From: an uncultured Bacteroidota bacterium | GTDB lineage: Bacteria > Bacteroidota > Ignavibacteria > UBA10030 > UBA6906 | Length of the DNA: 64,000 nucleotides | Reading direction: 5' to 3' | NCBI GenBank assembly: GCA_963809695.1 | Contig: CAWEKI010000012.1 | Location: 85,493 to 149,492, forward strand | In this document: piece by piece, positions 14,449-60,230 of the stretch | How positions within the stretch are numbered: position 1 is the first letter of the stretch | How the letters are laid out: each line of letters starts with the position of its first letter | Made by a program: the position numbers and the translations under genes | The notes under the pieces: model-generated | The model's database searches: none | Seen by the model: only the letters and a program-made list of their open reading frames with translations | Told to the model about the DNA's origin: nothing

Positions 14449-14458
14449 TCCTGAAACG

Positions 14459-14490: not shown

Positions 14491-14514
14491 GAGTGAGATC
14501 CTTGGACGAACCGA

Positions 14515-15195: not shown

Positions 15196-15210
15196 GCTTT
15201 ACATTAAAGT

Positions 15211-15229: not shown

Positions 15230-15247
15230 TATCCTCTTTGCCCCCTT

Positions 15248-16846: not shown

Positions 16847-16872
16847 TTCTCACCTCTATCACGGGGGTCAGT

Positions 16873-18099: not shown

Positions 18100-19163
18100 A
18101 GAATACCCGAAGGATAAACACGCTGGCGACTCTGGATGACATCGCAAAACGGGTCAAGGTCTCTCGCGTTACGGTTTCAAAGGCGCTCCGCGGACACCCC
18201 GATATTTCCGACAAGACGGCACGGATGGTGCGGAAAGTGGCTGAGGAAATCGGGTACCGCCCCAACATCATTGCCAGGAGCCTTTCCGCCCGGCGCTCGA
18301 ACATGATCGGCCTCGTCGTTCCGAAGATCGCGCACTTCTTTTTCGGGTCCGTGATCGAGGGCATCTACAACGCAGCATTCAGCAACAATTACGAAACCAT
18401 CCTGACGGTTTCCCAGGAGAACCCCGATCGAGAGCGAAGACACCTCCAGACGCTCATTTCGATGCGCGTGGATGGCATTATCATTTCCGTTTCTCAGGGG
18501 ACCAGGGATCTGGAGATCTTCCAATGGATCAAGAAGCTCGGGGTTCCACTCCTGTTCGTGGATCGCCAGCCCTCTCCACGCCCTGAAGGGTTCAGCAGCG
18601 TTCTTGTGGACGACAGAGGGGGGACCTTCAAGGCGATCGAGCATGCGATCAGCATCGGTTACCGGAAGATCGCGTGCATTGGCGGAGACACGCGTATCAA
18701 TATCGGCAAGGAGCGCACTGCCGGGTTTGAGGCCGCTATGAAAGCGCACGGTCTTCCGGTGGAAAAGCGATGGGTTGTGCCCGGAGGTTTCAGCAAGGAG
18801 ACCGGCTATGACGCGGTTCTCAAGCTTCATGCGGAGCGCCAGCTTCCCGAGCTCATTTTCGCCATGACCTATCCGGTCGCTCTCGGAGTGTACGAGGCGG
18901 CAAAGGAGCTGGGGCTCTCAATTCCGCAGGATGTGGACATTATCTGCTTCGGTGACAGCGACGTCTCGAGAGTGATATCGCCGGCGCTCAGCTGCGTACG
19001 GCAGCCCAGCTATGAACTGGGTTTGAAGGGGGTGGAGGTCATGCTCAACGTCCTGGCCCACCCGGAATCTGCGCAGGAACAACACTTGGTGCTTCCGGCG
19101 GATCTCATTGTGCGGGAAACGTGCACAGGAAAGAATGTGATCAAGTCGTCAAAGAAGGGATAG
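18096..19163 (+). CDS. LacI-family transcriptional regulator
   Basis: The ATG at 18096 overlaps the GH105 stop (ATGA). An N-terminal HTH is present (ATLDDIAKRVKVSRVTVSKALRGHPDISDKTARMVRKVAEEIGYRPNIIARSL), followed by a periplasmic-binding-protein-like sugar-binding core (MIGLVVP…). Confidence 0.85.
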   Translation: MKNTRRINTLATLDDIAKRVKVSRVTVSKALRGHPDISDKTARMVRKVAEEIGYRPNIIARSLSARRSNMIGLVVPKIAHFFFGSVIEGIYNAAFSNNYETILTVSQENPDRERRHLQTLISMRVDGIIISVSQGTRDLEIFQWIKKLGVPLLFVDRQPSPRPEGFSSVLVDDRGGTFKAIEHAISIGYRKIACIGGDTRINIGKERTAGFEAAMKAHGLPVEKRWVVPGGFSKETGYDAVLKLHAERQLPELIFAMTYPVALGVYEAAKELGLSIPQDVDIICFGDSDVSRVISPALSCVRQPSYELGLKGVEVMLNVLAHPESAQEQHLVLPADLIVRETCTGKNVIKSSKKG

Positions 19164-19184
19164 GGAGCCCGTTCATTCATATGG

Positions 19185-19195
19185 AACCGGTTACT
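19185..19195 (-). promoter_or_regulatory. third copy of AGTAACCG(GTT) motif, upstream of GH28-fusion gene
   Basis: AACCGGTTACT on the + strand equals AGTAACCGGTT on the minus strand. It lies 22 nt after the lacI-family stop and ~85 nt before the ATG at 19279. Confidence 0.3.
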
Positions 19196-19278
19196 GTCGA
19201 CGGCCAGTCCGGAGGCGTATGCCTCTCTTGTCGGATAGCGGGATCCTATTGAACAACAACCACGCCAGTCCTCTAGCA

Positions 19279-35456: not shown

Positions 35457-38400
35457 ATGAACGTTGTACAGCCCATCAGATCGTTTACCCTCTTCGGTCT
35501 CCTGTTTCTCATACCGCTCCAATTGTTCGGGCAAGGAACTCTGCGAGGTACAGTCGTGGACTCTGCGGGGCACAACGCGCTCATCGGGGCGAACGTCTAT
35601 CTTGTGGGAACTGCGCTCGGCGCTGTGACAGACAGGGAGGGGGAATTCAGAATTGTGAAGGTGCCGCAGGGAACATACACGCTTCGGTTCTCCTACCTCG
35701 GATATCAGACGCGGGAAATTCCCATCACAGTCACGCCCGACCTCACAATCCCCGTGTACGTCAGCCTGTTGCAAGGCATGGTGGAGGGGGAAGAGGTCAC
35801 GGTCACGGCCCAGGCTCGTGGTCAGGTTTCCGCCATCAACCAGCAGATCAGCTCATCGACGATCATCAACGTCATCTCTGAAGAGAAGATCCAGGAGCTC
35901 CCTGATGCCAATGCCGCCGAAGCGATCGGTAGGCTTCCCGGCGTTTCCATCACACGGTCGGGGGGAGAAGCCAACAAAGTCATACTTCGCGGCCTGAGCG
36001 ACAAGTTCACGACCGTCACGGTCGACGGCATCAAGATTCCTCCCACGGACGCTGACTCGCGCGGCGTAGATCTCAGCATCGTGTCCCAAGGATCGCTTGC
36101 GGGTGTCGAACTCTTCAAGGCGCTCACCCCGGACAAAGACGCGGACGCCATCGGAGGGAGCATCAACCTGGTGACCAGGAAGGCACCGTCGGAGCGACTC
36201 CTGAGGTTCGATGCGCGCGGGGACTACAATCAACTGATGGACAAATACGGCCAGTACGATTTCGCCCTGCGGTACGGGGAACGATTCTTCAGCGACGTGC
36301 TGGGAGTGCAGGTCCAGGGCAATCTTGAACGGCGCTACAGGAGCAATGAGCGCTATAATCTCACCTACAACCAGGCGTTGCGCGGCGGTACGGACTATGA
36401 GATCAGTGATCTCCTGCCGGAATTCAACAATGAGATCCGGAGGAGAAGCGGAGGAACCCTCCTGCTGGATCTCAACACCCCCGACAGCGGCAGCGTGAGG
36501 CTGAATACCATCTTCAGCCGAACGGACAGGAGTTGGCTGCAATCGCGCAGGGATTATCCGTACGGGTCCGGTATCTCCGTGACCTACCAATATCGCGATC
36601 GGGAGCAGGAGATCAACAACTTCAATACCGCTCTCCAGGGGAAGAACTACCTCGGGGGACTCACGTTTACCTGGGGTGCCTCCTTTGCCCAGTCGAAAGG
36701 GGAATACCCGTACGATTACTACATCGACTTCATCGAGCCATCAATCTTGCAGGGCAGCACCGTCATTTCGGGAATGCGGGGCGACACCCCGGCGCTGAAG
36801 TCAAGCCCTGAGCAGCTGATCCCCTACGCGTTGAACAACTTTCAGGTTGCATACCTTAACGCCGCCTATTATCGCTCGGAGTTGAACCTGGACAAAGAGA
36901 AGACCGCATACCTGGACGTGGCCGGGGAGTATCTGCTGGGCAGCGGGCTTTCCGGGGAACTCAAGGTTGGAGGCAAATACAAATACAAGAACAGGAACAA
37001 GGAAAGCGGAGAGATCTATTCTCCATACTACCTGGGCTATTGGAGAGCGTTCAGCAGGAACGCTGACGGGTCAATACAGAAGAAGGATTTTACCGGTACA
37101 TGGTTTGAGCCGTTCTATCAACGCTTCAAGAGGGACCAAAGCACCCGCAATCCCTTTGCGTTGGATTTTCTTGACCAGCCCCCTGACTACAGAATGCTCT
37201 ACGATACCTACGACCTGCGGCCGATCGTTGACAGGAATGCCCTGCGGCTCTGGTATGAGCTCAATAAGAACGGGGTGGACAGCCTTGGCCGCAGTTACGA
37301 GTACTACACGAATCCTGCAGCCGAGGCGGACTTCTACGACGTCGTGGAACGTGTCGGTTCTGGCTACGTGATGAACACGCTGAACTTCGGACAGGCTGTG
37401 ACCTTCATCGCCGGCCTGCGCGTGGAACAGGAAAAGAATGACTACCGGTCAAAGTTCTCACCCTTCGGACTGGGCGGCTTCCCCATCCCCAGCGGTCCGA
37501 TCCATGACACGACATCGACCTACACTGAGACCATCTGGCTTCCCAACTTTCACCTTACCGTGCGCCCGACGGACTTTGCGATATTCCGCGTTGCTGCCTA
37601 TCGCGCCCTCCTGCGTCCGGACTTCAATATGCGCCTGGAGAAATTCGTTTCCCAGGGCGGCGGCGGCAATCTCAGCCTTCTGCTCGGGAATTCCCATCTG
37701 AAGACCGCGAAGGCATGGAACTATGAGCTCAATGCATCCTTCTTTGGACCTACTTTCGGCTTGATTTCAGCATCGGTGTACTACAAAGAGATCAGCGACC
37801 TTTTCCACATGCTGGATACAGCATCAACCGTTGGAAACAGCCTGATCAACGAACTCGGGATTACCTGGAGTTCACCGCATGCCGGCGCCTATTCCCTCAC
37901 CGCGCCGTACACATCTACCCGTCCGGCGAAGGTCTGGGGATTCGAACTCGAACATCAGGTGAATCTCAATTTCCTCCCCGGTTTTCTCAAGAATTTCGTC
38001 CTCTCGTACAACGGCTCAATTGTCCGGTCCGAGACCTATGTGCTTTCCGTTGACACATTTAACGTGTACGTGAAACAACCGACCGGATTTCCTCCGCCGT
38101 TCGATTCCGTGTCTGTCCCGATCACAAACACCAAGTCCGTTGAGAAAAAGCAGAGCCTTGAGAACCAACCGAAGTTCTACGGCAATATCGCCCTCGGGTA
38201 TGACATTGGCGGATTCTCCGTGCGCCTCTCTCTGTTCCACCAGTCCGCGTACAACATCTCCTTCTCGGCAAGCGGCATCACCGACCGGATCAGCAACAGC
38301 TTCACCCGGCTCGATCTGGCTCTCAGACAGCACATTACCGACCATTTCTCTATCATGCTGAACCTGAACAACCTTACCGATACGGCAGAGCGAACATCCA

Positions 38401-38489
38401 TCCTCAACAGGGTCCAGGGATGGGAGCTCATCAGCTCGAGCGAGCGGTATGGTCTGACAGGAAACCTGGGGGTGAGACTGACACTGTAA
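35457..38489 (+). CDS. TonB-dependent outer-membrane receptor with N-terminal carboxypeptidase-regulatory-like domain
   Basis: 1010 aa with a signal peptide. The CarbopepD_reg-like domain (LRGTVVDSAGHNALIGANVYLVGT…YTLRFSYLGYQT) is followed by a plug (ISEEKIQELPDANAAEAIGRLPGVSITRSGG…ILRGL) and a long beta-barrel. No SusD-like partner follows it. Confidence 0.8.
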   Translation: MNVVQPIRSFTLFGLLFLIPLQLFGQGTLRGTVVDSAGHNALIGANVYLVGTALGAVTDREGEFRIVKVPQGTYTLRFSYLGYQTREIPITVTPDLTIPVYVSLLQGMVEGEEVTVTAQARGQVSAINQQISSSTIINVISEEKIQELPDANAAEAIGRLPGVSITRSGGEANKVILRGLSDKFTTVTVDGIKIPPTDADSRGVDLSIVSQGSLAGVELFKALTPDKDADAIGGSINLVTRKAPSERLLRFDARGDYNQLMDKYGQYDFALRYGERFFSDVLGVQVQGNLERRYRSNERYNLTYNQALRGGTDYEISDLLPEFNNEIRRRSGGTLLLDLNTPDSGSVRLNTIFSRTDRSWLQSRRDYPYGSGISVTYQYRDREQEINNFNTALQGKNYLGGLTFTWGASFAQSKGEYPYDYYIDFIEPSILQGSTVISGMRGDTPALKSSPEQLIPYALNNFQVAYLNAAYYRSELNLDKEKTAYLDVAGEYLLGSGLSGELKVGGKYKYKNRNKESGEIYSPYYLGYWRAFSRNADGSIQKKDFTGTWFEPFYQRFKRDQSTRNPFALDFLDQPPDYRMLYDTYDLRPIVDRNALRLWYELNKNGVDSLGRSYEYYTNPAAEADFYDVVERVGSGYVMNTLNFGQAVTFIAGLRVEQEKNDYRSKFSPFGLGGFPIPSGPIHDTTSTYTETIWLPNFHLTVRPTDFAIFRVAAYRALLRPDFNMRLEKFVSQGGGGNLSLLLGNSHLKTAKAWNYELNASFFGPTFGLISASVYYKEISDLFHMLDTASTVGNSLINELGITWSSPHAGAYSLTAPYTSTRPAKVWGFELEHQVNLNFLPGFLKNFVLSYNGSIVRSETYVLSVDTFNVYVKQPTGFPPPFDSVSVPITNTKSVEKKQSLENQPKFYGNIALGYDIGGFSVRLSLFHQSAYNISFSASGITDRISNSFTRLDLALRQHITDHFSIMLNLNNLTDTAERTSILNRVQGWELISSSERYGLTGNLGVRLTL

Positions 38490-38571: not shown

Positions 38572-40281
38572 ATGCTGACATTCCGATACAGATATATTCT
38601 GTTGCTCCTCTTGCTGCTGCTACCGCTGTCCATGCATGCGCAAGAATCTGTGCTGCGCCTGGTCCCGTATGATGGGACGCCGGCGAGCTTCCTCAATACC
38701 CAGATCGGGGCAGACACTACGGCGAACGGAGGGGTCATCCCGGCGAACCGGGTCTACGTGCTGCAGCGGGGAGCACCCTATCTGGCGAACGGTGTGTTCA
38801 ACGTCAACTCCGGTCAGACGCTTCGGATCCGGGCAAACGATAGCGCCGGCGTGCGGCGTCCGGTGATTTTCCTGTATCCTACGGGCACGGGCGCCAATCC
38901 GCAGAGGCCCCCGGGGAATTTCGCCGTTCTGCGCGGCAACCTGGAAATGAAGAACATCGTCCTGAGCGGCTACTTTGAGCCGATCGACACGAACCTGAAC
39001 AACCTTCAGGGCGCGCTTCTCAACATTCCCACCGCCGGTGCCGGGGCCAGTATCCTGCTTGATAGCTGCATACTGACCAATACCAATGGCAACCACATCC
39101 GCACCGATGGAGCGATAAACCTCCTGACCATTACGAACTGCATCTTCGCCAATATGGGCTTCCTGGGAACTTCAAACCTGGGGGCCGGAAAAGCGATGGA
39201 CCTGCGCGATGCATCCGCCGATACGGTCATTGTCCAAAACAACACATTCATCAACTGGCAAGACCGCATCATCCGGCACTATAATTTCAACAATCCTCTC
39301 GCCGGCACAGGTGCCATTAATTACCTCAAGTTCGATCACAATACGCTGGCCAACGGCATGTCGTACCACGGGCTCCTGTCGCTCGGCTCCATGGGACCGA
39401 AAGCGATCATCACGAACAACCTGATGATCGATCCGTTTTCGCTCGGCAACGACACGGATGCGACGCGACAGGCGGAGTTTGTGAACAACCTTGAGACCGA
39501 TCCGTACGGCGGTCCGCGTATGACGTGGGTGTTCACGACCCCCAATGACTCGACGCAATGGACCATTTCCAACAATTACTACGTGATATCAGACTCAGGT
39601 CAGGCCTTCTACGACGAGTTTGCCTCGGCCGGCGTCACCGGGGAAGGCTCTCCTCTTACCTGGCATATCAATAGCAAGCTTGGGGCAGACTCGGCCAACG
39701 CGTTCACCAAGACCAGCCTGAAGCTCAATGACATCCCCGCGCTCATGACCGCAGAGAACCGGTGGTATCGGTCGCCAAGCGGGGGGAACAAGCTGAAGAA
39801 TACCCCCAACGCGAACATCTGGAACCGGTCGTTCGACTTCGACCGGAGGGGATGGATGTACTATCATGACACGCTCGACTGTGCTTACTCCACAGCCTCG
39901 GGGGTGTACACAGCAGCCCTTGGCGGCTATCCGGTTGGTGATTTGAATTGGTTCCCAAGCCAGAAAGCGCTTTGGCTTGTCGATCCAGCCATGGATATTG
40001 CTCCCGGCGCTTTGCCCCTGGAGTTCTCCCTGAGCCAGAACTATCCGAATCCGTTCAATCCATCGACCAGAATCGAGTTCTCCGTCATGAAAGATGCGAA
40101 GGTGAAGCTTGAGGTGTTCGACCTGCTCGGGAGAAGCGTCGCCACGCTGGTGGACGGGCCGCAGCACGCCGGACAGCACTTCGTGGACTTCAATGCCTCG
40201 AACCTGGCGTCGGGATTCTATATCTATCGTCTCTCTTCGCCGCAGCTCACGATTGCGAAGAAGATGATGCTGATAAAGTAA
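38572..40281 (+). CDS. T9SS-sorted secreted protein with parallel beta-helix repeats (possible polysaccharide lyase/hydrolase)
   Basis: 569 aa. Signal peptide MLTFRYRYILLLLLLLLPLSMHAQ. The repeats NNTFINW / DHNTLANG / ITNNLMID are typical of right-handed beta-helices. The C-terminal ~80 aa is a Por/T9SS sorting domain (SLSQNYPNPFNPSTRIEFSV…LEVFDLLGRSVATLVDG…ASGFYIYRL…KKMMLIK). Confidence 0.7.
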   Translation: MLTFRYRYILLLLLLLLPLSMHAQESVLRLVPYDGTPASFLNTQIGADTTANGGVIPANRVYVLQRGAPYLANGVFNVNSGQTLRIRANDSAGVRRPVIFLYPTGTGANPQRPPGNFAVLRGNLEMKNIVLSGYFEPIDTNLNNLQGALLNIPTAGAGASILLDSCILTNTNGNHIRTDGAINLLTITNCIFANMGFLGTSNLGAGKAMDLRDASADTVIVQNNTFINWQDRIIRHYNFNNPLAGTGAINYLKFDHNTLANGMSYHGLLSLGSMGPKAIITNNLMIDPFSLGNDTDATRQAEFVNNLETDPYGGPRMTWVFTTPNDSTQWTISNNYYVISDSGQAFYDEFASAGVTGEGSPLTWHINSKLGADSANAFTKTSLKLNDIPALMTAENRWYRSPSGGNKLKNTPNANIWNRSFDFDRRGWMYYHDTLDCAYSTASGVYTAALGGYPVGDLNWFPSQKALWLVDPAMDIAPGALPLEFSLSQNYPNPFNPSTRIEFSVMKDAKVKLEVFDLLGRSVATLVDGPQHAGQHFVDFNASNLASGFYIYRLSSPQLTIAKKMMLIK

Positions 40282-43380: not shown

Positions 43381-45024
43381 TCAGAACCACATGCCCACCT
43401 CCATGAACACGCGCGCGCTGTTCATTGAATCGTCGATAGTGTAGTCCCCACCTGCCGTGCTATAGAATCTCCGGGAGATGCGCCAGTTGAGCATTGCCGA
43501 TGCAGTCTTTGTTCTGTAGGCGTGGCTGATAGTGGTCAGGGAGTACGCGTAGTCGTCATAACGCAGCAGCAGATCGATCTGCGTGAAGAGAAGCCTCTCC
43601 AGTTCGTAGGTGATGTCGGAGCCATCGAGATACACGCCGGTGATGGCGGCATAACGTGCTCCCACGTGGAGCCCGGTCCCGAAGATATTCGTGAATCGCA
43701 CCATTCCCGAAAACGTGTGAGAATTTCTGGCATCGCCTCTTCTGGTCTGGAAGGTTGCTGCGGCGGTCACGGATATTCCGGGTAAAGGGCGGAGAGTGGC
43801 CCGTGCATGAAAGCCGTGTCGGAGCGATTCTCTGAACAACGAGTCGGGTATGTTCTTCATTGTCTCAAAAAGGTAGACGCTCCTCGTCCCATCGTATCCC
43901 AGGCTGGCAGACAGCAATCGGTCCGGGGAATAGTTGATGGAGAGCAACGCGTTGGAAAGCCTGAGGGTTGATACGCGTTGTCCGTTGTTGACGTCGTTCA
44001 GGTCGAGCTGTGCATTTCCAAACATCCAGAGCGAGTTCCCGAGCGACGCCGAGCTTTGCACGTACAAGAACGACCGATCGAGGTTTCCGTTCACCTCCTG
44101 ACGTGCGTATGCCACCGTGCCCTGGTAGTTCCAGAGCGCCGGGTCACCTGTGCGGAACCCCGCGAAAACCGCTTCTTTGGTGTCATCACCCCCGATTCCC
44201 AATGCCCGTCCCTGAATTCCTTTTCCGATCAGAACGCCTGACGTGAACGCGCCCTGCCGCAGGAAGACCTGCCCTCCATCAAATGTCCCGAGACCGCTGA
44301 CGTATTGCGAAACCATGCGCCCGGCGCTGAATCCGAACCAATCCCCGGGCCGGTCACGCTCCAGCTGAAATTGGTACAGATCGAAACGCGATCGGACGGA
44401 GTCCCCATAGCGTGCATACGCGCCGGTCAATTCATAATACTCGCGTCCGCTGAACGACAGCGCCATTCCGGTGCCGAGGATGTTCCGCATGTGCAGGTAC
44501 GCAGCGGCCGCCGGTTGTCCGATGTTGAGCCGTGAATCTTCCGCCCATTCACCGGAGTATTGGAGTCCGATCCGGCCGGAGAGGATGTTCTCGGTTGGTA
44601 CGGTCTCCACCAAGGGCCGGGGTTGAGATGCAATTTCCGGAAGGGGCTGTGCTACGCCGGGTGGATTCGGAAGGAGAGACTCTGACCCCTTGGTGATGTT
44701 CCCGAGGTCACCGATCTTCGGAGATGTCTCGGGCCCGAGTATGTGCCCTACGGCAGAATGGGAGGCTGTCGCGCTGATTACCGCCTGCCCGACCATGGCG
44801 CCCGAACGTGAGAGCGTAACGGTGTCTCCGATTGCAACTCCCTCTTCAGCGCCGGCATCAAGATAGACCTGCCTTGAAGTGACGTAGGTGACCCTCATGA
44901 GTACGGAACCGGATGGCTGTCCCGGGAGCGCAACGGTGTCCATGACGGAAAGCGTGAAGAGCGCCAGGATGACCATGAGAGGTTTCAATTTCCCCCTCCT
45001 CCGGTTGGATGGCACCTGTAGCAT
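43381..45024 (-). CDS. outer-membrane beta-barrel protein (hypothetical), co-transcribed downstream of the decahaem cytochrome
   Basis: 547 aa (start at 45024, or at the internal Met at 44976). It has a signal-like N-terminus and a Ser/Pro-rich N-domain, then an alternating amphipathic pattern. The C-terminal residues …FMEVGMWF match the OMP terminal-aromatic signature. It overlaps or abuts the cytochrome gene stop. Confidence 0.6.
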   Translation of the reverse strand: MLQVPSNRRRGKLKPLMVILALFTLSVMDTVALPGQPSGSVLMRVTYVTSRQVYLDAGAEEGVAIGDTVTLSRSGAMVGQAVISATASHSAVGHILGPETSPKIGDLGNITKGSESLLPNPPGVAQPLPEIASQPRPLVETVPTENILSGRIGLQYSGEWAEDSRLNIGQPAAAAYLHMRNILGTGMALSFSGREYYELTGAYARYGDSVRSRFDLYQFQLERDRPGDWFGFSAGRMVSQYVSGLGTFDGGQVFLRQGAFTSGVLIGKGIQGRALGIGGDDTKEAVFAGFRTGDPALWNYQGTVAYARQEVNGNLDRSFLYVQSSASLGNSLWMFGNAQLDLNDVNNGQRVSTLRLSNALLSINYSPDRLLSASLGYDGTRSVYLFETMKNIPDSLFRESLRHGFHARATLRPLPGISVTAAATFQTRRGDARNSHTFSGMVRFTNIFGTGLHVGARYAAITGVYLDGSDITYELERLLFTQIDLLLRYDDYAYSLTTISHAYRTKTASAMLNWRISRRFYSTAGGDYTIDDSMNSARVFMEVGMWF

Positions 45025-45800
45025 GCGGCGCTTCTGTACTCGTATCCGCTGACCTCGCCATGCCGGCTATCCATCGCGCTTTTGGTGTGTGCATGGCAGT
45101 TAATGCACTCAAACGTGCCGTAGTTTGGCTGGGACGGGTGGCAGTCCGTACAAGTGTTCCAGCGTCCAGGCGGGTGGTTGCTGCCGGCGCTGATCGGAAA
45201 GAAGTTGTCATGCGGAAAGAATGCAGCAGGCCGCCATGTCAGCGCACGATGGCAGAGTGAGCAGTCTGTCGAAAATCCCGCCGCAACATGGTTCGGGTTC
45301 GTGGTCGCAAGATATATCTCGCGATGACATGCCACGCACTCGGTTGGCGTACCTCTGAACCGGGCATCGGTGTGACATGATCCGCAAGGAACAGACTGGT
45401 GTATACCCCGCGTGGGAAAATTCGTCTTGTCGTGATCGAAAGAAGCAAGCCAGGACGATGCGTCCGACATATGGCATTCAGTGCATTCGGTGCTGAACCC
45501 TGCCGTGGCATGGTTGATCGCCAATGCTGCGTCATAGTCCTTGCGGTGGCAGGAGATGCAGTCCAATGAAGTCCCTGCGAACCGGAGAGTCGTGTGGCAG
45601 GAGACGCAGGTCGTGTTGCGGTGTTCGCCGCGCAACGGGAATGCGGTCGTATCATGGTCGAATTTGAGCGGGAAGTGAACCGGCGTCCACGACGCAGTCG
45701 TGTGACAATCGGAGCAGGACTGCCCGACAGGTCCATGCGGTGAATCCTGTGCATGGGCGATCCCGGCAAAGGCCACGAGCAAGAGCAGGAACGGCTTCAT
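44985..45800 (-). CDS. decahaem c-type cytochrome (paired-CXXCH type), periplasmic/secreted
   Basis: 271 aa with a signal peptide (MKPFLLLLVAFAGIAHA). It has ten CxxCH motifs: CSDCH, CVSCH, CISCH, CTECH, CGSCH, CVACH, CSLCH, CTDCH, CINCH, CYRCH. They are arranged in an internally repeated unit (C..CH…F.H…FP..G.H….C..CH). Confidence 0.85.
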   Translation of the reverse strand: MKPFLLLLVAFAGIAHAQDSPHGPVGQSCSDCHTTASWTPVHFPLKFDHDTTAFPLRGEHRNTTCVSCHTTLRFAGTSLDCISCHRKDYDAALAINHATAGFSTECTECHMSDASSWLASFDHDKTNFPTRGIHQSVPCGSCHTDARFRGTPTECVACHREIYLATTNPNHVAAGFSTDCSLCHRALTWRPAAFFPHDNFFPISAGSNHPPGRWNTCTDCHPSQPNYGTFECINCHAHTKSAMDSRHGEVSGYEYRSAACYRCHPTGGGGN

Positions 45801-45980
45801 GATGGGGGAGGCTCTGGCGGTGATTTCGCGACGTTGAACAGAATATACAGAAATTTGTTGACTCTTCTGGCTTATAGATCGGGTCTCGCTGGTGAAAAAG
45901 GTTGAACGATTGAGAAGAGTAAGAGGTATGTTGCCTGGAGCAGCTCTTGAATATTCCTGTCATTTAGCGTATCTTGTGAC

Positions 45981-46361
45981 ATGAAATACAAAATCCTGGC
46001 TATACTCTGGATGGTGGGGATTTTTATCAGCTCATCCATCCCGTCCGATGCATTTCCGGAGGTGAGTTTCTGGGGATGGGCAAAACTCATTCATCTGATT
46101 TACTTTGGCGTGCTCTGTTTCCTGTTTCAGCGGGTCCTGCGGAATCAGAAGAAATTTCCCTATCTTTCCAGAAACTCCATTCTCTTTGCTATCCTCTTTG
46201 CGGCTTGTTACGGCATGACCGATGAGTTTCATCAGCTTTTCACGCCGGGCAGGCATGGACATGTGACCGATGTGCTGGTTGATGCCCTGGGGGCATGCTT
46301 GTTTGTCGCCGGTGCCAAAGCGTATGAATCCCTGCGGTTAAGACGCGCCGATCCCGCCTGA
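45981..46361 (+). CDS. VanZ-family membrane protein
   Basis: 126 aa with 4 TM segments. The VanZ-like motif MTDEFHQLFTPGRHGHVTDVLVDALGA is present. Confidence 0.65.
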   Translation: MKYKILAILWMVGIFISSSIPSDAFPEVSFWGWAKLIHLIYFGVLCFLFQRVLRNQKKFPYLSRNSILFAILFAACYGMTDEFHQLFTPGRHGHVTDVLVDALGACLFVAGAKAYESLRLRRADPA

Positions 46362-48572: not shown

Positions 48573-48989
48573 ATGGGTTCGTTTTTGAAGTCTGACAACA
48601 TCGGCAAGCTGCTGGTTCGGATTGCTGTCGGCGGCCTCATGCTCTTTCATGGAATTTTCAAGCTCACGCACGGCATCGGCTTCATTGAAGGCGTTCTGGC
48701 CGGGCGGGGATGGCCGGGGTATATCGCTTATGGCGTGTATCTTGGGGAAATTTTCGCCCCGATTCTCATCCTCGTCGGATTCAGGACACGGCTAGCCGCA
48801 CTTGTCGTGGTCATCGACATGGTAGCGGCCATCTGGCTTGTCCATGCAGGGAACATCCTCCAGGTCAAAGAAGCGGGGGGTGCCTGGGGTATTGAGCTTG
48901 AAGCGATTTACCTGCTGGGTTCGCTTGCGCTGTTCTTTATGGGCGGGGGTCAGTATTCCGTGTCGAGAGGGCGCAGCGTGTGGGATTAA
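48573..48989 (+). CDS. DoxX-family membrane protein
   Basis: 138 aa with 4 predicted TM helices. DoxX-like pattern (LLVRIAVGGLMLFHGIFKL…). Confidence 0.7.
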   Translation: MGSFLKSDNIGKLLVRIAVGGLMLFHGIFKLTHGIGFIEGVLAGRGWPGYIAYGVYLGEIFAPILILVGFRTRLAALVVVIDMVAAIWLVHAGNILQVKEAGGAWGIELEAIYLLGSLALFFMGGGQYSVSRGRSVWD

Positions 48990-49169
48990 AGCTGCAGCCC
49001 TGCGCTGAGTGTGACACCAAACCGGTAGTTCACGGGCAGGGCGAGTTTTGATCCGGTCATGTTGCCCAGGGTAAACGACGGACCTCCGGACTATTCCAGG
49101 ACTTGCAGTCTCCCGCCGGCAGAAATTTTCACGAATAGTCCTCGATATAGTTATATGAATGGGTGGGAA

Positions 49170-50435
49170 ATGGTAATTTCGAGCATGAAGCGTCTGTTGA
49201 AATGGCTCGGCCGTCTTGTGACCGTGCTGGTTGTCCTGCTCGTTGTCTTAGGCGTGTATGTGGAGCTGGCGTGGGACAAACCAGACAGCCGTCCTGCACC
49301 GCGGATGACTGCGCCGCGTGATTCCGCCACGGTCGTGCGGGGAGAATATATCTTCAAGCACGCCTGGCAGTGCTGGGGATGCCATGCGGCCGCCGGTGAC
49401 GGCAATGCGGCTCCCAGCGGCGGCCAGCGGTTCGACCTTCGGTCGGTCGGTCCGGGTTTCGGCGTGTATTACAGCCGCAATCTGACGCCCGACTCAGCCA
49501 CAGGGCTGGGAGCCTGGACTGATGGGGAGATCGTGCAGGCGATCCGCGAAGGGATCAGACGGGACAGGCATGTGCTGTTTCCGCTGATGCCGATCGACTG
49601 GCTGAAGGGGCTTTCCGATCAGGATGTCCTGGCTGTTGTAGCGTACATCCGCAGCCTTCCGCCTGTGCGGAATCGCGTCCCGGAGCGGGATGCGTCCTTC
49701 ATCGCAAAGGCATTGATGGCGTTCAACGTCATCAAGCCGATCGCTCCGATCACCGCGCCCGTGGTTGCCCCCCCCTCGGGGCGCACGGTGGAATACGGCA
49801 GGTACGTTGCATCCAATCTCGCCGGCTGTGCAGATTGCCACTCTCCGCGCAACCTTCAGAACGGAGAGTTCTATCCCGACAGTTTGTTTGCGGGAGGAAG
49901 CATTGCCTTTGGCAAGGACGAAGGGGATCCCATATTCGCGTATGCACGCAACCTCAGGCCGGGGCGTGCAACGGGCGAGCATGAATGGACGGAAGAGAAA
50001 TTCCTGCAAGCTGTAACGGTGGGCATGCGCCCGGATAGCACGGTGTTGACTCCCCACATGCCGTATGCATACTACAAATTCCTCTCTGAGGATGATCTTC
50101 GGGCGATCTATGTCTACCTGCGGTCCCTTTCGCCGCTCAGGCGCAGCGTACCGCTGCCTGGTTTTTCGGCCGATCTGATACAGGCGCGCGGACCATCCAG
50201 AGGAGCGCTTCTCTTCCGGGCTCGATGCCGGGCATGTCATGGGGATGGCGGTACGGGCGCTGTCCCGACGAACGTCAAGCTTGCTGAGGTTGCCTCCTCA
50301 TTTGAGGATGACGACCTGCGCGATTTCATCGCCTCGGGGCAGATGAATCTCAAAATGCCTGCCTTCGGCAAGACCTTGACAAGGGACGAGTTGGGCGATC
50401 TTGTCGCGTATATACGGTCATGGGAGAAACAGTAA
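49170..50435 (+). CDS. membrane-anchored trihaem cytochrome c (alcohol/gluconate-dehydrogenase cytochrome-c-subunit-like)
   Basis: Start placed at ATG 49170 (MVISSMKRLLKWLGRLVTVLVVLLVVLGV, TM anchor), preceded by GGTGGGA. The ORF-track start at 49059 is less likely. Three CxxCH motifs are present: CWGCH, CADCH, CRACH. There are AdhB-like inter-haem blocks (NLTPDSATGLGAWTDGEIVQAIREG, LSDQDVLAVVAYIRSLPP). Confidence 0.7.
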   Translation: MVISSMKRLLKWLGRLVTVLVVLLVVLGVYVELAWDKPDSRPAPRMTAPRDSATVVRGEYIFKHAWQCWGCHAAAGDGNAAPSGGQRFDLRSVGPGFGVYYSRNLTPDSATGLGAWTDGEIVQAIREGIRRDRHVLFPLMPIDWLKGLSDQDVLAVVAYIRSLPPVRNRVPERDASFIAKALMAFNVIKPIAPITAPVVAPPSGRTVEYGRYVASNLAGCADCHSPRNLQNGEFYPDSLFAGGSIAFGKDEGDPIFAYARNLRPGRATGEHEWTEEKFLQAVTVGMRPDSTVLTPHMPYAYYKFLSEDDLRAIYVYLRSLSPLRRSVPLPGFSADLIQARGPSRGALLFRARCRACHGDGGTGAVPTNVKLAEVASSFEDDDLRDFIASGQMNLKMPAFGKTLTRDELGDLVAYIRSWEKQ

Positions 50436-50857
50436 TGCCCTGGGTACAGAAGGAGTTTGCGCTCTTGCCGAAAAGACGCGGGTTTCATCTGGTGACGTCT
50501 GAAATTGTGGGGCAGATGCCGGAGATTGGCACGATACGGCGCGGGATTCTACATCTTTTCATTAAACACACATCAGCGTCGCTCACCATCAATGAAAATG
50601 CCGACCCGACCGTTCGGACGGATCTGGAGCGGCACTTCAACGAGCTTGCCCCTGAGAATGAGCCATATTACGAGCATGACACCGAAGGATCAGACGATAT
50701 GCCGGCGCACATCAAGGCGTCAATGCTTGGGAGCAGTGTGACAATCCCGATTAGCGCGGGCCGGTTAAACCTGGGCACGTGGCAAGGCATCTATCTCTGC
50801 GAGCACAGGAACCGCGGCGGAAGCAGAGAGATCGTTGCGACGATCTGTGGTGAATAA
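50435..50857 (+). CDS. YjbQ/UPF0047-family protein (secondary thiamine-phosphate synthase-like)
   Basis: Start at the second Met (MPWVQKEFALLPKRRGFHLVTSEIV). The YjbQ-type sequence continues (SASLTINENADPTVRTDL…). A 1-nt overlap (TAATG) joins it to the cytochrome gene. Confidence 0.7.
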   Translation: MPWVQKEFALLPKRRGFHLVTSEIVGQMPEIGTIRRGILHLFIKHTSASLTINENADPTVRTDLERHFNELAPENEPYYEHDTEGSDDMPAHIKASMLGSSVTIPISAGRLNLGTWQGIYLCEHRNRGGSREIVATICGE

Positions 50858-55621: not shown

Positions 55622-56149
55622 TCACCCCTCGAGATAGCTCCGCAGTCTTTTCCTCAACACCTTCAACGCGTGGTTGATCTGGTTCTCAACAGTCTTGGGA
55701 CTGAGACCAAGAAACTCCGCAATCTCGCGATTTGACTTACCTTCAAACCTGCTGAGTAGGAATACCGTCCGGCACTTCTCGCCAAGTCCTTCATTGATGA
55801 CCGCATCGAGCTCATCCTCAAGCATTGTCAGCTCCAGCGCTTCATGAGGATCGTCTCCTTCGGAAAGCGTTGGCCGGGGAATCCTTCCCTCCAGTCGTTC
55901 ACGGACCTTCCGGTGCTTGGCTGCGTCCAACACCAGGTTAGTGCTAATGCTCAAAGCAAGTGCAAGAAAACTGCGGTGCGGCCGGAGCGTTGTGCGATGT
56001 TCCCAGATCCTGACGAATGTCTCCTGGACGATGTCGTGCGAGAGATCGGTCTGGCGCGTGTGGCACAGCGCCCGGCGAAAGATAATCGGCTGATAGCGGT
56101 TAAAAAGTGCCCGAAAGGCCACCATGTCGGAGTCCCTGACCCTTTCCAT
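55622..56149 (-). CDS. ECF-type RNA polymerase sigma factor (sigma-70 family)
   Basis: Probable start MERVRDSDMVAFRALFNRYQPIIFRRAL (sigma region 2). The ORF-track start at 56218 is an upstream in-frame alternative. Region 4 HTH is present (EKCRTVFLLSRFEGKSNREIAEFLGLSPKTVENQINHALKVLRKRL). Confidence 0.8.
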   Translation of the reverse strand: MERVRDSDMVAFRALFNRYQPIIFRRALCHTRQTDLSHDIVQETFVRIWEHRTTLRPHRSFLALALSISTNLVLDAAKHRKVRERLEGRIPRPTLSEGDDPHEALELTMLEDELDAVINEGLGEKCRTVFLLSRFEGKSNREIAEFLGLSPKTVENQINHALKVLRKRLRSYLEG

Positions 56150-56391
56150 GAGCCGCTTATCTGATGTCTGCACATCCACGCGACACCAAAAATCGATAGT
56201 GACTGCAAAATAGGACATCTGTCATAGACCTGCAACTGGGACAAGACGAACTCAGGGGACACTAAGCACCAAGAGGGACAAAACAATGGTTTTGCTTTTG
56301 CCCTATTGTTCTTTTCTCTGTGTCCTTTGTGTTCCTCTTTCTGATGATTTGGGTGCGCAAGGCAGGATGATCGTTAATAATGTAGGCACCC

Positions 56392-56826
56392 ATGACCCCG
56401 ACACAACATAACAGCAGGCTTCTTATCTTGTTCTTGATGCCGCTTCTCGCTGCACGGTGCTTGGACTATGGCACTCCGCTCGATCCCGGAGTTGCCTCGA
56501 TTTCCGGCTCCTGGGTCTGGCAGCGGTCGACGGGTGGCTTCGCTCCCCACGTTATCCTGCCGCCCCCAGGGTCAATGACTGTGGATACTTTTTCCCCGCG
56601 TGGAGACTATGCAAGGGTAAAGGATGGAATTCTCGTTTTGACCGCCCGGTTTGCAATCAAGACCCAGGATTCCCATCTCATGGTGCAGTACAGCGATATA
56701 AACTCGGGAGGCCAGTATCCGGTTGTCCACCTCTTCGATCAGTGGGCAGCAGTGGAAGGAGATACCCTTCGCCTCGTTGATGATGGAGCAGATCTTTACG
56801 CGCACACATATGCGCGAGTCAAGTAG
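56392..56826 (+). CDS. hypothetical secreted protein
   Basis: 144 aa with a hydrophobic N-terminus (LLILFLMPLLAARC). No family recognised. It sits between the divergent ECF sigma and FecR genes. Confidence 0.35.
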   Translation: MTPTQHNSRLLILFLMPLLAARCLDYGTPLDPGVASISGSWVWQRSTGGFAPHVILPPPGSMTVDTFSPRGDYARVKDGILVLTARFAIKTQDSHLMVQYSDINSGGQYPVVHLFDQWAAVEGDTLRLVDDGADLYAHTYARVK

Positions 56827-56836
56827 GAGGTCCACG

Positions 56837-57775
56837 ATGGTTCATTTCTTAAAATTCTCTGCCTGGTTCAAACAACGACGGTCCTTGGCGGGAGACCAGC
56901 AAGCGGATTTCTCCGCCTTGCAGGACCTTGTGGATGCCCGGGCTCGCAACTTGCACGCGGCGGATCCGGACACGGCCCGTCAATGGCAGTATCTGAACGT
57001 CGTTCTGCAAAAAGGTCCAGCCCTCGAGAAGAGCAGGAAGAAAGTTGGGGCATTCCGACTCCTCAATCCCTCAATCTCCTTTGGCGGCATCGCAACGATT
57101 GTCCTGATTGTCGCCGGAGTGCTCTGGATCAACCGGAGCTCTGTGTCGACGTATGTGACAGGGAAAGGTCAGCAGTCATCGATCATGCTGTCAGACAGCA
57201 GCGATGTGACGCTCAACCACACTTCTTCGCTTGTTGTGGAAAATCGTCCGTTCGGCGGCACGCGGCATGTTTCGCTGAAGGGGGAGGCATTCTTCAACGT
57301 GCGAAGGAACGGAACGGCTTTTGTTGTCACAACGGACGTAGGCACTGTGCAGGTGCTTGGGACTCAATTTGATGTCCGGGTACGCGGGGGGCAGTTGGTG
57401 GTGGGTGTTGTCGGGGGGAGTGTGAGCGTGAGCGCCCAGCGAGGAGGACGAGACAGCTCGGTAGTGCTTGCGGCAGGGCAGATTGTCACGTGTATGAAGG
57501 ACAACTATCCAGGCACTCCAGGACAACTTCCTTTTGCCGACTATCCGGGGTGGACCCGGGGAAAATTCCTCTTCTACAAGACGAGCATTCTCTCGGCCTG
57601 CAAGGAAATTGAATCGCAGTTTGATGTACAGATCAGCATTGAGCGCCCGGGTGCGGGAGAGGAGACGATCACTGGCGTAGTCGATGGACACAGTGCGGAG
57701 ACTGCTGTTGCTGCTTTGTCGAATTTGACAGGACGAAAGTTTCGGCATGAGAACGGCGTGTACACTCTTTATTAG
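56837..57775 (+). CDS. FecR-family anti-sigma factor / trans-envelope signal transducer
   Basis: ATG at 56837 with an AGGAGG RBS 7 nt upstream. A single TM segment is present (IATIVLIVAGVLWI), with a periplasmic FecR domain (GKGQQSSIMLSDSSDVTLNHTSSL…VLGTQFDV). Confidence 0.75.
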   Translation: MVHFLKFSAWFKQRRSLAGDQQADFSALQDLVDARARNLHAADPDTARQWQYLNVVLQKGPALEKSRKKVGAFRLLNPSISFGGIATIVLIVAGVLWINRSSVSTYVTGKGQQSSIMLSDSSDVTLNHTSSLVVENRPFGGTRHVSLKGEAFFNVRRNGTAFVVTTDVGTVQVLGTQFDVRVRGGQLVVGVVGGSVSVSAQRGGRDSSVVLAAGQIVTCMKDNYPGTPGQLPFADYPGWTRGKFLFYKTSILSACKEIESQFDVQISIERPGAGEETITGVVDGHSAETAVAALSNLTGRKFRHENGVYTLY

Positions 57776-60230
57776 CCTCGTTCTGGCAATCGGGATGACA
57801 TCGGGCGCCGATGCGCAGGACAGGACGCGGAGCTTTCAATTCTCGGATTTGAGCCTCCGGTCAGCTCTGGACTCGCTTATGCGGTGGTATCCCGTCTCTA
57901 TTGTCTATCTTGACAGGGACGTTGAAGAGAAAAGGGCGTTCGCATCGTGCTCCAGTTGCAGTTTCGAAGAAGCATTGAACGGCGTTCTCGAAGGCACTTC
58001 ACTCACGTGGATGAGAACGGGAAACCAGGTGATCCTGAAAGCCATGGCTGTTGCGCCTTCCCATCCCGCAGCCACGCTGTGTGGCACCGTGACGGACTCC
58101 CTGACGGGGGAAGGGATCGCCAATGCGACCGTGGTTGTTCGGGACAATATTGGTGAAGCATCCCCGACAATTCAACGCTGGTGCCCGACGAACCCCTATG
58201 GTTTCTATTCTCTCCGCAATCTCTCTCCCGGAGCTTACACAATCATGGTGCGTGCAATGGGATACACGCCGCTGGAAGTGGCTATTGTTGTGCCTCCAAG
58301 CGGGCCGGTCTGGATGGACATCAGCATGAAATCAGAAGAAATCACACTGCAGGAGGTTACCATTGAGGGATACCGCTCAGCGCTGGCGTCAGCGGGGACC
58401 TACTCGCGGGGGATCTACATCCGGTCCGGACCATCCGATCAGCATCAGTACTTTCTCGATGGCGCAAGAATCTACAACCCTTCGCATTTCGGAGGTGTGC
58501 TTAGCTCAATCAGCGACGAGGCGGTAAACGAGGTGCAGGAGATGGTCGAAGGAATGCCGCCCAACTATGGCGGCCGGATTGGCGGTATCCTGGATTTGTC
58601 GATGCGGGAGGGTACGCCGGAGCGCCTCTCCGGGTCCGCCGGGATCGGATCGCTGGGGTCTCGCCTCTCGCTGGAAGGTCCGCTGGGCGGTTCAACTTCC
58701 TATTTGATCTCGGGGCGGAGGGCGTTTCCGGATGCTCTGGTGCCTTTCCTCCCTCCGGACGGCACCCCGAGCCGCCTCGGTTCATCCGAGGTCACTGCCA
58801 AGCTGAGTCATCGGCTTTCTTCCAGCAGCAGACTTTTTCTGAGTGGTTACTGGGGGAGCGACTCGTACGACAACCAGGTTGAGGGAGCCGGGATGCGGCT
58901 CAACAACAACTTTGGATGGGAAAACAGCATGATCAACCTGCGGTGGATCGGGATCGCATCGTCATCGCTCTTCTTGCATGCTTCAGCGTCCTACTCGAGG
59001 TATGGCTTTGCGCTTGAGCATGCAATGACCGGGGATCCATACCTTTCACCCGGATCATCGCTCTCTTCTGATTATGCCGTTGAGGATGTGACGCTGCGTG
59101 CGCAGGCGGAGCACTATTACGATGAAGAGCATACCGTGCTGGGCGGCATGGAGCTGATCCATCACCGGATGAGGGGGAATATCAGCACCTTCTCAAGCCA
59201 GATTGCGCCCATTTCATCGGAGTATTCTCCGATATGGGAGTTGTCGGTCTATTTGCAGGATCAGTGGAGAATCCTCCCGCGCGTCATGGCGGAGCTCGGG
59301 GCCCGGGCCACGAACTTCACGGGGAACAATGGATCGTTGTCGGCGGTCGACCCGCGGTTTGCCCTCCTCGTTTCACTGAGCGATCAATCCCGGATGTATG
59401 GGACAGTCACGTCCGTCAATCAGTTCGTTCACCCTTACAGGAACAGCGGCGTGTTTCTCTTTTACCCGGCCATCTTCTGGTATCCCTCCACCGACCGGGT
59501 ACGTTCCTCCGCGTCGCTGCAGATGACGCTTGGCATCGGGAAGAGTTTCGGGAACGATGCCTATCTCTTCTCTGCGGAGTCGTTCTACCGGACGACGCAC
59601 AATCTCCATGAATTCATGGCTGACACAGTGCTCAGCCTGTCGGGCGATCTGAGCGACAACGTGCACTTCGGGACGGGGAAATCGTACGGGATTAGCCTGG
59701 CGTTCCGGAGGCGCGTGGGGACACTAACCGGGTCCCTGGGCTATATGTACGCCTGGGAACAGAACACATTTCCGGAACTCAACGGAGGCGAGCCGTTTGT
59801 CCCTCGGTTCAGCCACCGTCATGAACTGCAAGTGGATGCGCGGATCGACGGAGGCGGGGCGTGGGCGTTTGGTGCGCTCTGCGTCGTTGCGCTCACTCAA
59901 TCATGGTTGCCGCCATCGGAGGCTTCAATGTCGCAGGACAATTTCGGTTCTGGGCCAGCGGCGTCGAGCCCTGCTCTGTCGCTCTTCGACCTCAGCCAGA
60001 ACCGGTTTCCGGGATTCCAAAGACTCGAGCTGAATGTGGCGCGGAGAGTAATGCTAGGGAGCGTATGGGGGGAGATTTCCCTTCGCCTGCTCAATGCGTA
60101 CGGGCTGCTGGATCCTTTTGCGTGGGAACTGCACCGGAGGCCTGACCTCCGGCTGAAGTGGACAGCCGACGTACAGCAGCTCCAACTCTTCCCGCTCTAT
60201 CCGGCATTGGGAATAACTGCGCGATTTTAG
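57747..60230 (+). CDS. TonB-dependent transducer-type receptor with N-terminal STN signalling domain and carboxypeptidase-regulatory-like domain
   Basis: 827 aa with a signal peptide. STN-like block FQFSDLSLRSALDSLMRWYPVSIVY…ALNGVLEGTSLTW. CarbopepD_reg-like block (LCGTVTDSLTGEGIANATVVVRD…YTIMVRAMGY). Plug and barrel follow. The C-terminal residue is F. Confidence 0.75.
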   Translation: MRTACTLFISLVLAIGMTSGADAQDRTRSFQFSDLSLRSALDSLMRWYPVSIVYLDRDVEEKRAFASCSSCSFEEALNGVLEGTSLTWMRTGNQVILKAMAVAPSHPAATLCGTVTDSLTGEGIANATVVVRDNIGEASPTIQRWCPTNPYGFYSLRNLSPGAYTIMVRAMGYTPLEVAIVVPPSGPVWMDISMKSEEITLQEVTIEGYRSALASAGTYSRGIYIRSGPSDQHQYFLDGARIYNPSHFGGVLSSISDEAVNEVQEMVEGMPPNYGGRIGGILDLSMREGTPERLSGSAGIGSLGSRLSLEGPLGGSTSYLISGRRAFPDALVPFLPPDGTPSRLGSSEVTAKLSHRLSSSSRLFLSGYWGSDSYDNQVEGAGMRLNNNFGWENSMINLRWIGIASSSLFLHASASYSRYGFALEHAMTGDPYLSPGSSLSSDYAVEDVTLRAQAEHYYDEEHTVLGGMELIHHRMRGNISTFSSQIAPISSEYSPIWELSVYLQDQWRILPRVMAELGARATNFTGNNGSLSAVDPRFALLVSLSDQSRMYGTVTSVNQFVHPYRNSGVFLFYPAIFWYPSTDRVRSSASLQMTLGIGKSFGNDAYLFSAESFYRTTHNLHEFMADTVLSLSGDLSDNVHFGTGKSYGISLAFRRRVGTLTGSLGYMYAWEQNTFPELNGGEPFVPRFSHRHELQVDARIDGGGAWAFGALCVVALTQSWLPPSEASMSQDNFGSGPAASSPALSLFDLSQNRFPGFQRLELNVARRVMLGSVWGEISLRLLNAYGLLDPFAWELHRRPDLRLKWTADVQQLQLFPLYPALGITARF

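Follow-up and report, generated by a model that had tools for sequence, protein, structure and literature searches.

A decahaem cytochrome and an adjoining 22-strand barrel in an uncultured Ignavibacteria bacterium: a candidate minimal porin-cytochrome module

As far as is known, Gram-negative bacteria exchange electrons with minerals, humics, electrodes and partner cells mainly through porin-cytochrome conduits, and to our knowledge experimental study has been limited to the Mtr family and, to some extent, the Pcc and Ext families of Geobacter. In this work we describe a pair of genes encoding a secreted decahaem c-type cytochrome and an outer-membrane (OM) beta-barrel protein, located in a 64,000-nucleotide stretch of DNA from an uncultured Bacteroidota bacterium of the lineage Ignavibacteria (assembly GCA_963809695.1, contig CAWEKI010000012.1, positions 85,493 to 149,492), hereafter the window. 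As in MtoAB and PioAB, the gene of a secreted decahaem protein and that of an OM barrel lie side by side on one strand, and a dedicated surface cytochrome is absent. With a probability of roughly 0.6, and judging from sequence comparison, the two proteins would form a minimal trans-OM haem conduit in which the decahaem cytochrome is docked in the barrel through its C-terminal unit.

MtoAB and PioAB are two-component relatives of MtrCAB, a group known from Shewanella, Sideroxydans and Rhodopseudomonas. The solved structure of MtrB has 26 strands, and MtrA is about 330 amino acids (aa) long. Pcc porins are predicted to have 18-22 strands and Pcc periplasmic cytochromes carry 5-14 haems; the Pcc clusters of Anaeromyxobacter and Kuenenia also lack a surface cytochrome (PMC4245776). 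For Ignavibacteria, both porin-cytochrome clusters and Fe(III) reduction have been reported (PMC7399161, PMC4245776, PMC11495043). The PCC3 type combines porins of up to 42 predicted transmembrane segments with a giant extracellular cytochrome (median of 34 haems), a cytochrome of about 21 haems in the periplasm and an inner-membrane protein in which the HX13H motif occurs twice (PMC5566968). Additionally, a metagenome-assembled genome (MAG) of Lentimicrobium encodes 61- and 20-haem cytochromes and a porin in a cluster described as having no synteny to characterised PCC (PMC13013709), and undescribed Saprospiraceae cytochromes of more than 100 haems appear in a 2024 study (PMC11495043).

The cytochrome-barrel gene pair

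The features of the pair are as follows, with positions given in the window.

44985..45800, minus strand: secreted decahaem c-type cytochrome, 271 aa, c7/c3-type units (open reading frame (ORF) and Pfam)
45750..45800, minus strand: cytochrome signal peptide, residues 1-17, ending AHA before QD (read from the translation)
45450..45671, minus strand: triheme repeat unit A, residues 44-117 (self-alignment)
45231..45449, minus strand: triheme repeat unit B, residues 118-190 (self-alignment)
44988..45230, minus strand: divergent C-terminal triheme unit C, residues 191-271 (self-alignment)
44985..45024, minus strand: gene junction, with the barrel ORF start inside the cytochrome gene (sequence)
43381..45024, minus strand: OM protein, 547 aa (or 535 aa), with signal peptide, N-terminal beta domain, linker and 22-stranded barrel
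44689..44910, minus strand: N-terminal beta domain, residues 39-112, six strands (secondary structure of the model)
44602..44688, minus strand: low-complexity Pro-rich linker, residues 113-141, predicted disordered (predicted local distance difference test (pLDDT) score 26-41)
43384..44586, minus strand: predicted 22-stranded transmembrane beta-barrel, residues 147-547, ending …GMWF (AlphaFold2 model)
43834..43899, minus strand: most conserved motif of the barrel family, GYDGTRSVYLFETMKNIPDSLF, residues 376-397 (family alignment)
45801..45980, no strand: divergent intergenic region of 180 bp between the VanZ gene (plus) and the cytochrome gene (minus) (ORF coordinates and sequence)

Exactly ten CxxCH motifs occur in the cytochrome, at residues 29, 65, 81, 106, 139, 155, 180, 217, 232 and 260, where the chance expectation for 271 aa was estimated at well below 0.01 from typical Cys and His frequencies. 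The N-terminus, MKPFLLLLVAFAGIAHA followed by QD, is a Sec-type signal peptide without a lipobox Cys, and Q18, S20 and H22 just after it are invariant in the cytochrome family. The initial annotation of this DNA, made from the sequence alone, had described a secreted 271-aa protein with ten CxxCH motifs, about one haem per 25 residues and an internal triplication, and each of these statements was borne out. Units A and B aligned to one another with a score of 208 (z=28 over shuffles), while the more divergent unit C gave z=9 against A and z=5.8 against B. Matches above the Pfam cutoffs were obtained for Cytochrome_C7 (42.4 bits, cutoff 24.8), Cytochrom_CIII (34.7 bits, cutoff 22.9) and Cytochrom_c3_2 (28.0 bits, cutoff 25.0); by these profile matches, the protein belongs to the c7/c3 superfamily at the domain level. 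In an alignment of 56 homologues, the ten CxxCH motifs and 11 further His residues were all invariant, which is enough for bis-His ligation of every haem. This conservation points to low-spin bis-His electron-transfer haems with no obvious open catalytic site.

The barrel protein was modelled with AlphaFold2 using a 42-sequence alignment (mean pLDDT 75). The model comprises a signal helix, an N-terminal beta domain, a disordered linker and 22 transmembrane strands, and its best fold matches are the 22-stranded barrels of TonB-dependent transporters, a likeness implying a lumen wide enough for a folded domain. A barrel too narrow to hold a cytochrome, a concern raised in the initial annotation, is thus not what the model predicts. 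The signal-peptide-like N-terminus and the C-terminus ...VFMEVGMWF likewise agree with its description as an OM protein. No Pfam or NCBIfam model matched the protein above threshold (a weak, sub-threshold Pfam match to the MreC barrel core, E=0.02, falls in the N-terminal domain), and the family profile had no match among PDB sequences even at E<=10.

Within the N-terminal domain, V45, Y47, Y54, G58, G66, D67, T68, S90, G105 and D106 are conserved, and the columns of the following linker are variable in the family alignment. The domain is kept across the barrel family and is missing from a related 425-aa porin family; in the hhalign comparison with porin family A3, the match does not begin before profile column 152. 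Docking in the periplasm and plugging of the barrel are possible roles of this domain. The most conserved motif has the consensus GYDGTRSVYLFETMKxIPDxLF, invariant or nearly so from G376 to L396, and residues 381-401 form the one stretch of very low confidence inside the modelled barrel (pLDDT 33-37). Possibly the motif is a loop in the lumen or at a constriction, and it may depend on the cytochrome for its folding.

Two candidate starts were considered for the barrel gene, an ATG at 45024 that gives a 40-nt overlap with the cytochrome gene, and a TTG at 44988 that overlaps the cytochrome stop codon as TTGA. Either one implies translational coupling. Since the TTG (44986-44988) lines up with the start of relatives of 527-538 aa, the protein may be 535 aa long, and a start at ATG 45024, giving 547 aa, probably includes 12 codons too many. 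The statement of the initial annotation that the two genes overlap or abut stands, while the length of 547 aa given there may have to be corrected. For L054, a syntenic relative, the corresponding coordinates are 10004 for the end of the cytochrome ORF and 10001 for the barrel start. The promoter of the two-gene operon presumably lies in the intergenic region at 45801..45980. A scan for sigma-70 consensus promoters, which is blind to those of the Bacteroidota type, gave no match flanking the operon, and no convincing terminator was found there.

A barrel family linked to multihaem cytochromes

A word-indexed search returned 52 relatives of the barrel, with E-values from 1e-233 to 4e-96 except for the distant P0052 (E=3e-27). 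An exhaustive profile search extended the family to 2,381 clusters at 50% identity, and for 820 of these E was below 1e-30; the best 150 matches were for the most part full-length (about 530-575 aa), a few being shorter fragments. None of ten distant relatives looked up carried a functional name, and no paper defining, naming or testing this barrel family was found in the literature searched. The family was defined by profile A1, of which the window protein is the first row. The window protein has all 21 invariant positions, the N-terminal beta domain and the GR..G.G..DG and YDGTRSVYLFETMK motifs; by this comparison it is a full-length member of the A1-defined, multihaem-linked family of predicted 22-strand barrels.

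Scanning one genome per species yielded 53 loci, all in MAGs labelled mostly as Ignavibacteriota, Kryptoniota and Bacteroidota (a few labels are seemingly wrong). The family is found in polysaccharide-degrading Ignavibacteriota and Bacteroidota of soils, sediments and wastewater. Linkage was scored as an ORF with at least six haem motifs ending at most 400 nt from the barrel start and was counted in loci with at least 1.5 kb of upstream sequence; locus L059, fragmented by frameshifts, was left out. On this basis, a multihaem cytochrome gene lies directly upstream of the barrel in 50/50 loci. The same arrangement, with profile-confirmed barrels, was observed in L056 (Aequorivita, CP084379.1) and L060, which were found through their cytochromes, and in L058, found through a distant barrel relative. 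Homologues consistently tied to periplasmic reductases rather than to OM proteins had been named in the initial annotation as a finding that would speak against its reading, and the homologues are instead tied to the barrel and multihaem cytochromes. For a link to nitrite/hydroxylamine reductases, only sub-threshold NrfB-type noise was detected, and a reductase gene was present in no related locus.

The barrel-adjacent cytochromes carry from 10 to 39 haems and share a common head, SPHG…CxxCH, in 47/50 loci. A tail signature, …CI.CH.H…GY.Y…CY.CHP, was matched as a strict pattern in 39/50 of these 10-39-haem proteins, and variants of it are visible by eye in the remaining ones except that of L014. 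Both the conserved head and the conserved tail are present in the window cytochrome, where the tail corresponds to unit C, making this unit the candidate barrel-docking end of the cytochrome. The public annotation of L054 places a 216-aa ORF (9132-9782) over the decahaem gene on the incorrect strand, the true 10-haem ORF being on the opposite one; counts of these cytochromes in annotated metagenomes may be too low.

The usual gene order of the family was established by clustering of neighbouring genes combined with Pfam and NCBIfam scans:

Usual cluster 1: membrane protein of about 291 aa, no known family, b-type-like and inner-membrane
Usual cluster 2: TPR protein
Usual cluster 3: 20-haem cytochrome of about 545 aa
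Usual cluster 4: zero to two giant cytochromes with 22-41 haems
Usual cluster 5-6: decahaem (barrel-adjacent cytochrome), then the barrel
Usual cluster 7: 433-aa FeS-flavoprotein with an N-terminal membrane helix

HX13H and WX3HX13H motifs are present in 25/25 members of the membrane protein, and the giant cytochromes (22-41 haems) are repeat expansions of the decahaem. The 433-aa protein has two 4Fe-4S motifs (Fer4) and a FAD/NAD(P) pyridine-nucleotide-disulphide oxidoreductase domain (Pyr_redox), and the Lys-rich stretch after its membrane helix implies that this domain is cytoplasmic. Together, the two-HX13H protein and the FeS/FAD oxidoreductase look like a split exporter of the NOX/ferric-reductase type feeding the cytochromes. 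None of the cluster cytochromes has a lipobox or a C-terminal domain of the type IX secretion system (T9SS). Full clusters were found in L004 (3212-12827) and also in L035, L056, L058 and L060, and the usual cluster occurs in both Ignavibacteriota and Bacteroidota, including Aequorivita. The complete genome of Aequorivita sp. (Flavobacteriia, GCA_020341635.1) holds the full system at CP084379.1 1,611,546-1,632,940, with the flavoprotein, 23-haem and 19-haem cytochromes and the barrel, adjoining ResB/CcsA cytochrome c biogenesis genes. The full system could be studied genetically in this organism.

The window keeps only the decahaem and the barrel. At least three syntenic relatives, with barrels 61-67% identical to that of the window, share this two-gene form and its VanZ and GxGYxYP flank. 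In a neighbour-joining tree, the window clade is placed beside clades that have the 20-haem, 10-haem and barrel genes and lack the inner-membrane and flavoprotein genes, and all two-gene and three-gene clades are nested within the full-cluster family. By this tree, the window module arose by reduction from a larger conserved cluster. Comparison with the L054 orthologues gave a pN/pS of 0.17 for the cytochrome, with dS saturated, and a dN/dS of about 0.18 for the barrel. As judged from these ratios, both genes are under purifying selection and the pair is maintained, not decaying.

The pair itself is flanked by VanZ and an M16 peptidase. The VanZ gene is divergent at 45981-46361 (plus), as the initial annotation had it, and is followed by a putative GxGYxYP glycoside hydrolase. 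The polysaccharide-degradation neighbourhood recognised in that annotation was identified as a large pectin/rhamnogalacturonan utilisation locus at about positions 1-35,000 (1-35222). Its glycoside hydrolases (GH) include a GH78 alpha-L-rhamnosidase, two GH28, GH88, GH130 and GH116, accompanied by a glutaminase-A-like hairpin protein, a melibiase-like protein, tagaturonate epimerase UxaE, 6-phosphogluconate dehydrogenase, LarA_N, a PfkB kinase, a HAD hydrolase and DUF4861. After this locus come a TonB-dependent receptor (35457-38489) and a T9SS-tailed beta-helix protein (38572-40281). No tRNA or Rfam elements were found in the 64-kb window.

On the other side of the pair and 3-5 kb from it, positions 48573-50857 encode DoxX, a tri-haem cytochrome c and YjbQ. 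The cytochrome, a membrane-anchored class I protein of 458 aa (49059-50435), is the only other haem protein of the window. In L054 this tri-haem cytochrome is missing and an 8-haem Cytochrome_cB protein adjoins YjbQ instead, together with a b-type cytochrome (Ni_hydr_CYTB) and sulfur-transport/rhodanese genes. These genes may hint at periplasmic or inner-membrane partners. Further along, at 55622-60230, an ECF (extracytoplasmic function) sigma factor, a FecR-like anti-sigma protein and an 827-aa CarboxypepD_reg/TonB-dependent-receptor-like protein, identified from their translations and a syntenic contig, make up a trans-envelope signalling unit that is unrelated to the cytochrome-barrel pair.

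A proposed conduit and its alternatives

In the mechanism that we propose, both genes would belong to one operon encoding a minimal porin-cytochrome conduit. The decahaem protein would be exported to the periplasm, where its ten bis-His haems would form a chain, and one end of this chain, most likely the conserved C-terminal triheme unit, would lie inside the 22-stranded barrel. Electrons could then cross the OM between periplasmic carriers and extracellular acceptors or donors, the candidates being Fe(III), humic quinones, Fe(II) or a partner cell, and, in the manner of MtoAB and PioAB, the module would need no surface cytochrome of its own. The analysis establishes the gene anatomy, the haem motifs with their conserved distal His, the barrel size, the strict linkage of barrel and cytochrome across the family and the purifying selection on both genes; that the cytochrome enters the barrel and transfers electrons, in which direction and with which partners, is inferred. 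This reading is supported by the invariant His, haem density and c7/c3-type domains of the cytochrome, by the wide lumen that the barrel model implies, by the 50/50 linkage and the overlapping stop and start codons, by the purifying selection on both genes and the recurrence of the two-gene form, by the recurrence of the same C-terminal triheme module whether the cytochrome has 10 or 39 haems, by the further electron-transfer parts present in the usual cluster, by the profile link of the barrel to a porin family associated with 14-haem cytochromes (see below), and by the published reports of porin-cytochrome clusters and Fe(III) reduction in Ignavibacteria.

Several observations weigh against a conduit. 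The function proposed for the barrel family draws on comparative genomics, and the window proteins have no sequence relationship to MtrA, MtrB or PioAB. The structure model of the cytochrome alone was poor (pLDDT 60) and gave zero Foldseek matches, and either the N-terminal domain or the conserved 376-397 loop of the barrel could plug the lumen. The search for a partner multihaem cytochrome at the cell surface, suggested in the initial annotation, found none in the 64-kb window, in which no other six-frame ORF has more than three CxxCH motifs. Additionally, the 20-haem, inner-membrane and flavoprotein partners are missing from the window module, and the sugar-catabolic neighbours give no functional support for it.

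One alternative is that the barrel exports the cytochrome, or anchors and displays it (the giants in relatives), in the manner of an usher or a two-partner-secretion pore, with no haem sheath; another component would then carry electrons across the OM, if such a path were needed at all. The top Foldseek matches of the barrel are the usher pores FimD and PapC, and its extra N-terminal domain is a feature of many secretion pores. Giant cytochromes similar to those of the cluster are predicted to be extracellular (PMC5566968, PMC11495043). With neither a lipobox nor a T9SS C-terminal domain on the cluster cytochromes, some export route is required for them. We consider export or display unlikely to be the function of the barrel, though the best placed of the alternatives to a conduit. 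Slightly less probable still is an arrangement in which the decahaem is an ordinary periplasmic carrier or store and the barrel a co-expressed channel for a solute, such as a metal or a redox-active substrate, with no haem chain crossing the membrane. Soluble carriers of the periplasm are common among multihaem proteins of the c7/c3 type, as in the PpcA and GSU1996 families; the barrel has a fold like that of transporter barrels, and no extracellular partner was identified in the 64-kb window. However, the barrel and cytochrome genes were adjacent in every locus examined, often overlapping, the conserved C-terminal module of the cytochrome always stood beside the barrel, and clusters with 20-41-haem proteins would be hard to explain by solute uptake.

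That the two genes are a functionless, decaying remnant of a larger cluster is very improbable. The window clade indeed lacks the 20-haem gene that its sister clades keep, as well as the inner-membrane and flavoprotein genes of the wider family, but both ORFs are intact, the ten haem motifs and the family-invariant residues are all retained, dN/dS is well below 1 at saturated dS, and several syntenic relatives whose barrels are 61-67% identical have kept the two genes in this arrangement.

Beyond the window, we tentatively suggest, as a possibility that is more doubtful than the conduit itself, that the barrel family represents a widespread and undescribed extracellular electron-transfer system of Ignavibacteriota and Bacteroidota. 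In its full form, the FeS/FAD oxidoreductase and the two-HX13H protein would act as a split exporter resembling NOX/ferric reductases and driven by NAD(P)H or ferredoxin, with electrons passing from these donors across the inner membrane, along the 20-haem cytochrome and the repeat-expandable c7 wires, and out of the cell by way of the 22-stranded barrel. The two-gene form of the window would be the irreducible OM core, working alone with generic periplasmic donors. The full system is found even in the cultured, aerobic, marine Aequorivita.

If the conduit reading is correct, polysaccharide degraders could dump electrons to Fe(III) or humics, or take electrons up, by means of a family that is separate from the studied ones and very large (about 2,400 clusters at 50% identity). 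The window version is the smallest form seen, with two genes and about 800 codons, and this small size makes it well suited to heterologous expression, structure determination and proteoliposome assays.

Comparison with described porin-cytochrome systems

The initial annotation likened the pair to conduits of the MtrAB/PioAB/Pcc type. The architecture was upheld by the overlapping genes and the 50/50 loci, but membership of the MtrAB/PioAB sequence families was rejected, with no profile or PDB sequence of those families matching either protein. The NCBIfam model TIGR03508 (DmsE/MtrA decahaem) did not match the window cytochrome at E<=0.1, and its comparison with PDB sequences gave nothing better than E=0.05; with decahaem MtrA/DmsE, it has ten CxxCH motifs in common and no family match. 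The window barrel is predicted to have 22 strands and an N-terminal domain, as opposed to the 26 strands of MtrB, and the 271-aa cytochrome is built from triheme repeats of the c7/c3 type, as opposed to the roughly 330 aa of MtrA. What is shared with MtoAB and PioAB, besides the gene arrangement, is the proposed mechanism of a barrel-sheathed haem wire. Tandem c7/c3-type triheme units and very little polypeptide per haem are also characteristic of GSU1996-type proteins; however, the NCBIfam model nanowire_3heme was below its cutoff for the window cytochrome (15.9 bits vs 40), and GSU1996 is a soluble periplasmic protein that is not known to be paired with a barrel.

Several features are shared with the Pcc systems. 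The 22 predicted strands of the barrel and the 10 haems of the adjacent periplasmic cytochrome both fall within the published ranges, and the host phylum is the same as that of Ignavibacterium album (IALB_1837-1840, PMC4245776). In locus L012, a 14-haem, 398-aa cytochrome and a 440-aa porin lie beside the studied cluster, and this pair fits the published description of the I. album Pcc proteins IALB_1838/1839 (PMC4245776). The Ignavibacteriota porin family linked to such 14-haem cytochromes was used as the target of a profile-profile comparison (hhmake profiles, hhalign). The barrel family matched it with a probability of 99.6% and E=1.7e-23 over 370 colinear columns, with the invariant GR…G.G..DG motif aligned; in control runs, the reversed target gave E=0.079 and the reversed query a spurious 17-column match. 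In a HMMER search, members of the present barrel family made up the dominant set of weak matches to the 14-haem-linked porin family (E from 6e-4 to about 1). Based on these profile comparisons, the barrel is probably a remote homologue of the Pcc-type porin of Ignavibacteria. The two porin families coexist in the same MAGs at separate loci. A second multihaem cluster, with cytochromes of 13, 19, 6 and 3-4 haems, lies directly downstream in L020, L023, L026 and L028 (about 13,000-21,600) and ends in L023 with a porin of the 14-haem-linked family, so that some genomes hold electron-transfer 'islands' with two different porin families. In contrast to the OmbB-OmaB-OmcB arrangement of Geobacter Pcc, the window family has the extra N-terminal domain and the cytochrome upstream of the barrel, and the 64-kb window encodes no OmcB-like outer cytochrome.

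The usual form of the family, rather than the window form, recalls the parts list of PCC3, matched here by description (He et al. 2017, PMC5566968), with a protein of about 300 aa bearing HX13H/WX3HX13H motifs, a cytochrome of about 20 haems, a giant 22-41-haem cytochrome and a porin. It differs in its barrel, which is predicted to have 22 strands in about 540 aa and not up to 42 segments, and in the addition of the barrel-adjacent cytochrome with the conserved tail, the TPR protein and the FeS/FAD oxidoreductase; the window module has none of the partners that define PCC3. The giant-cytochrome clusters of Bacteroidota such as Lentimicrobium resemble the family in their phylum-level host and in having a 20-haem cytochrome beside a giant cytochrome and a porin. 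Matched by description only, these reports are probably sightings of the same family, although they offer neither a definition of it nor a structure or a minimal form. Altogether, the comparison identifies the kind of system found here, a porin-cytochrome pair, as known, and the form it takes as new, a variant within a large, uncharacterised barrel family.

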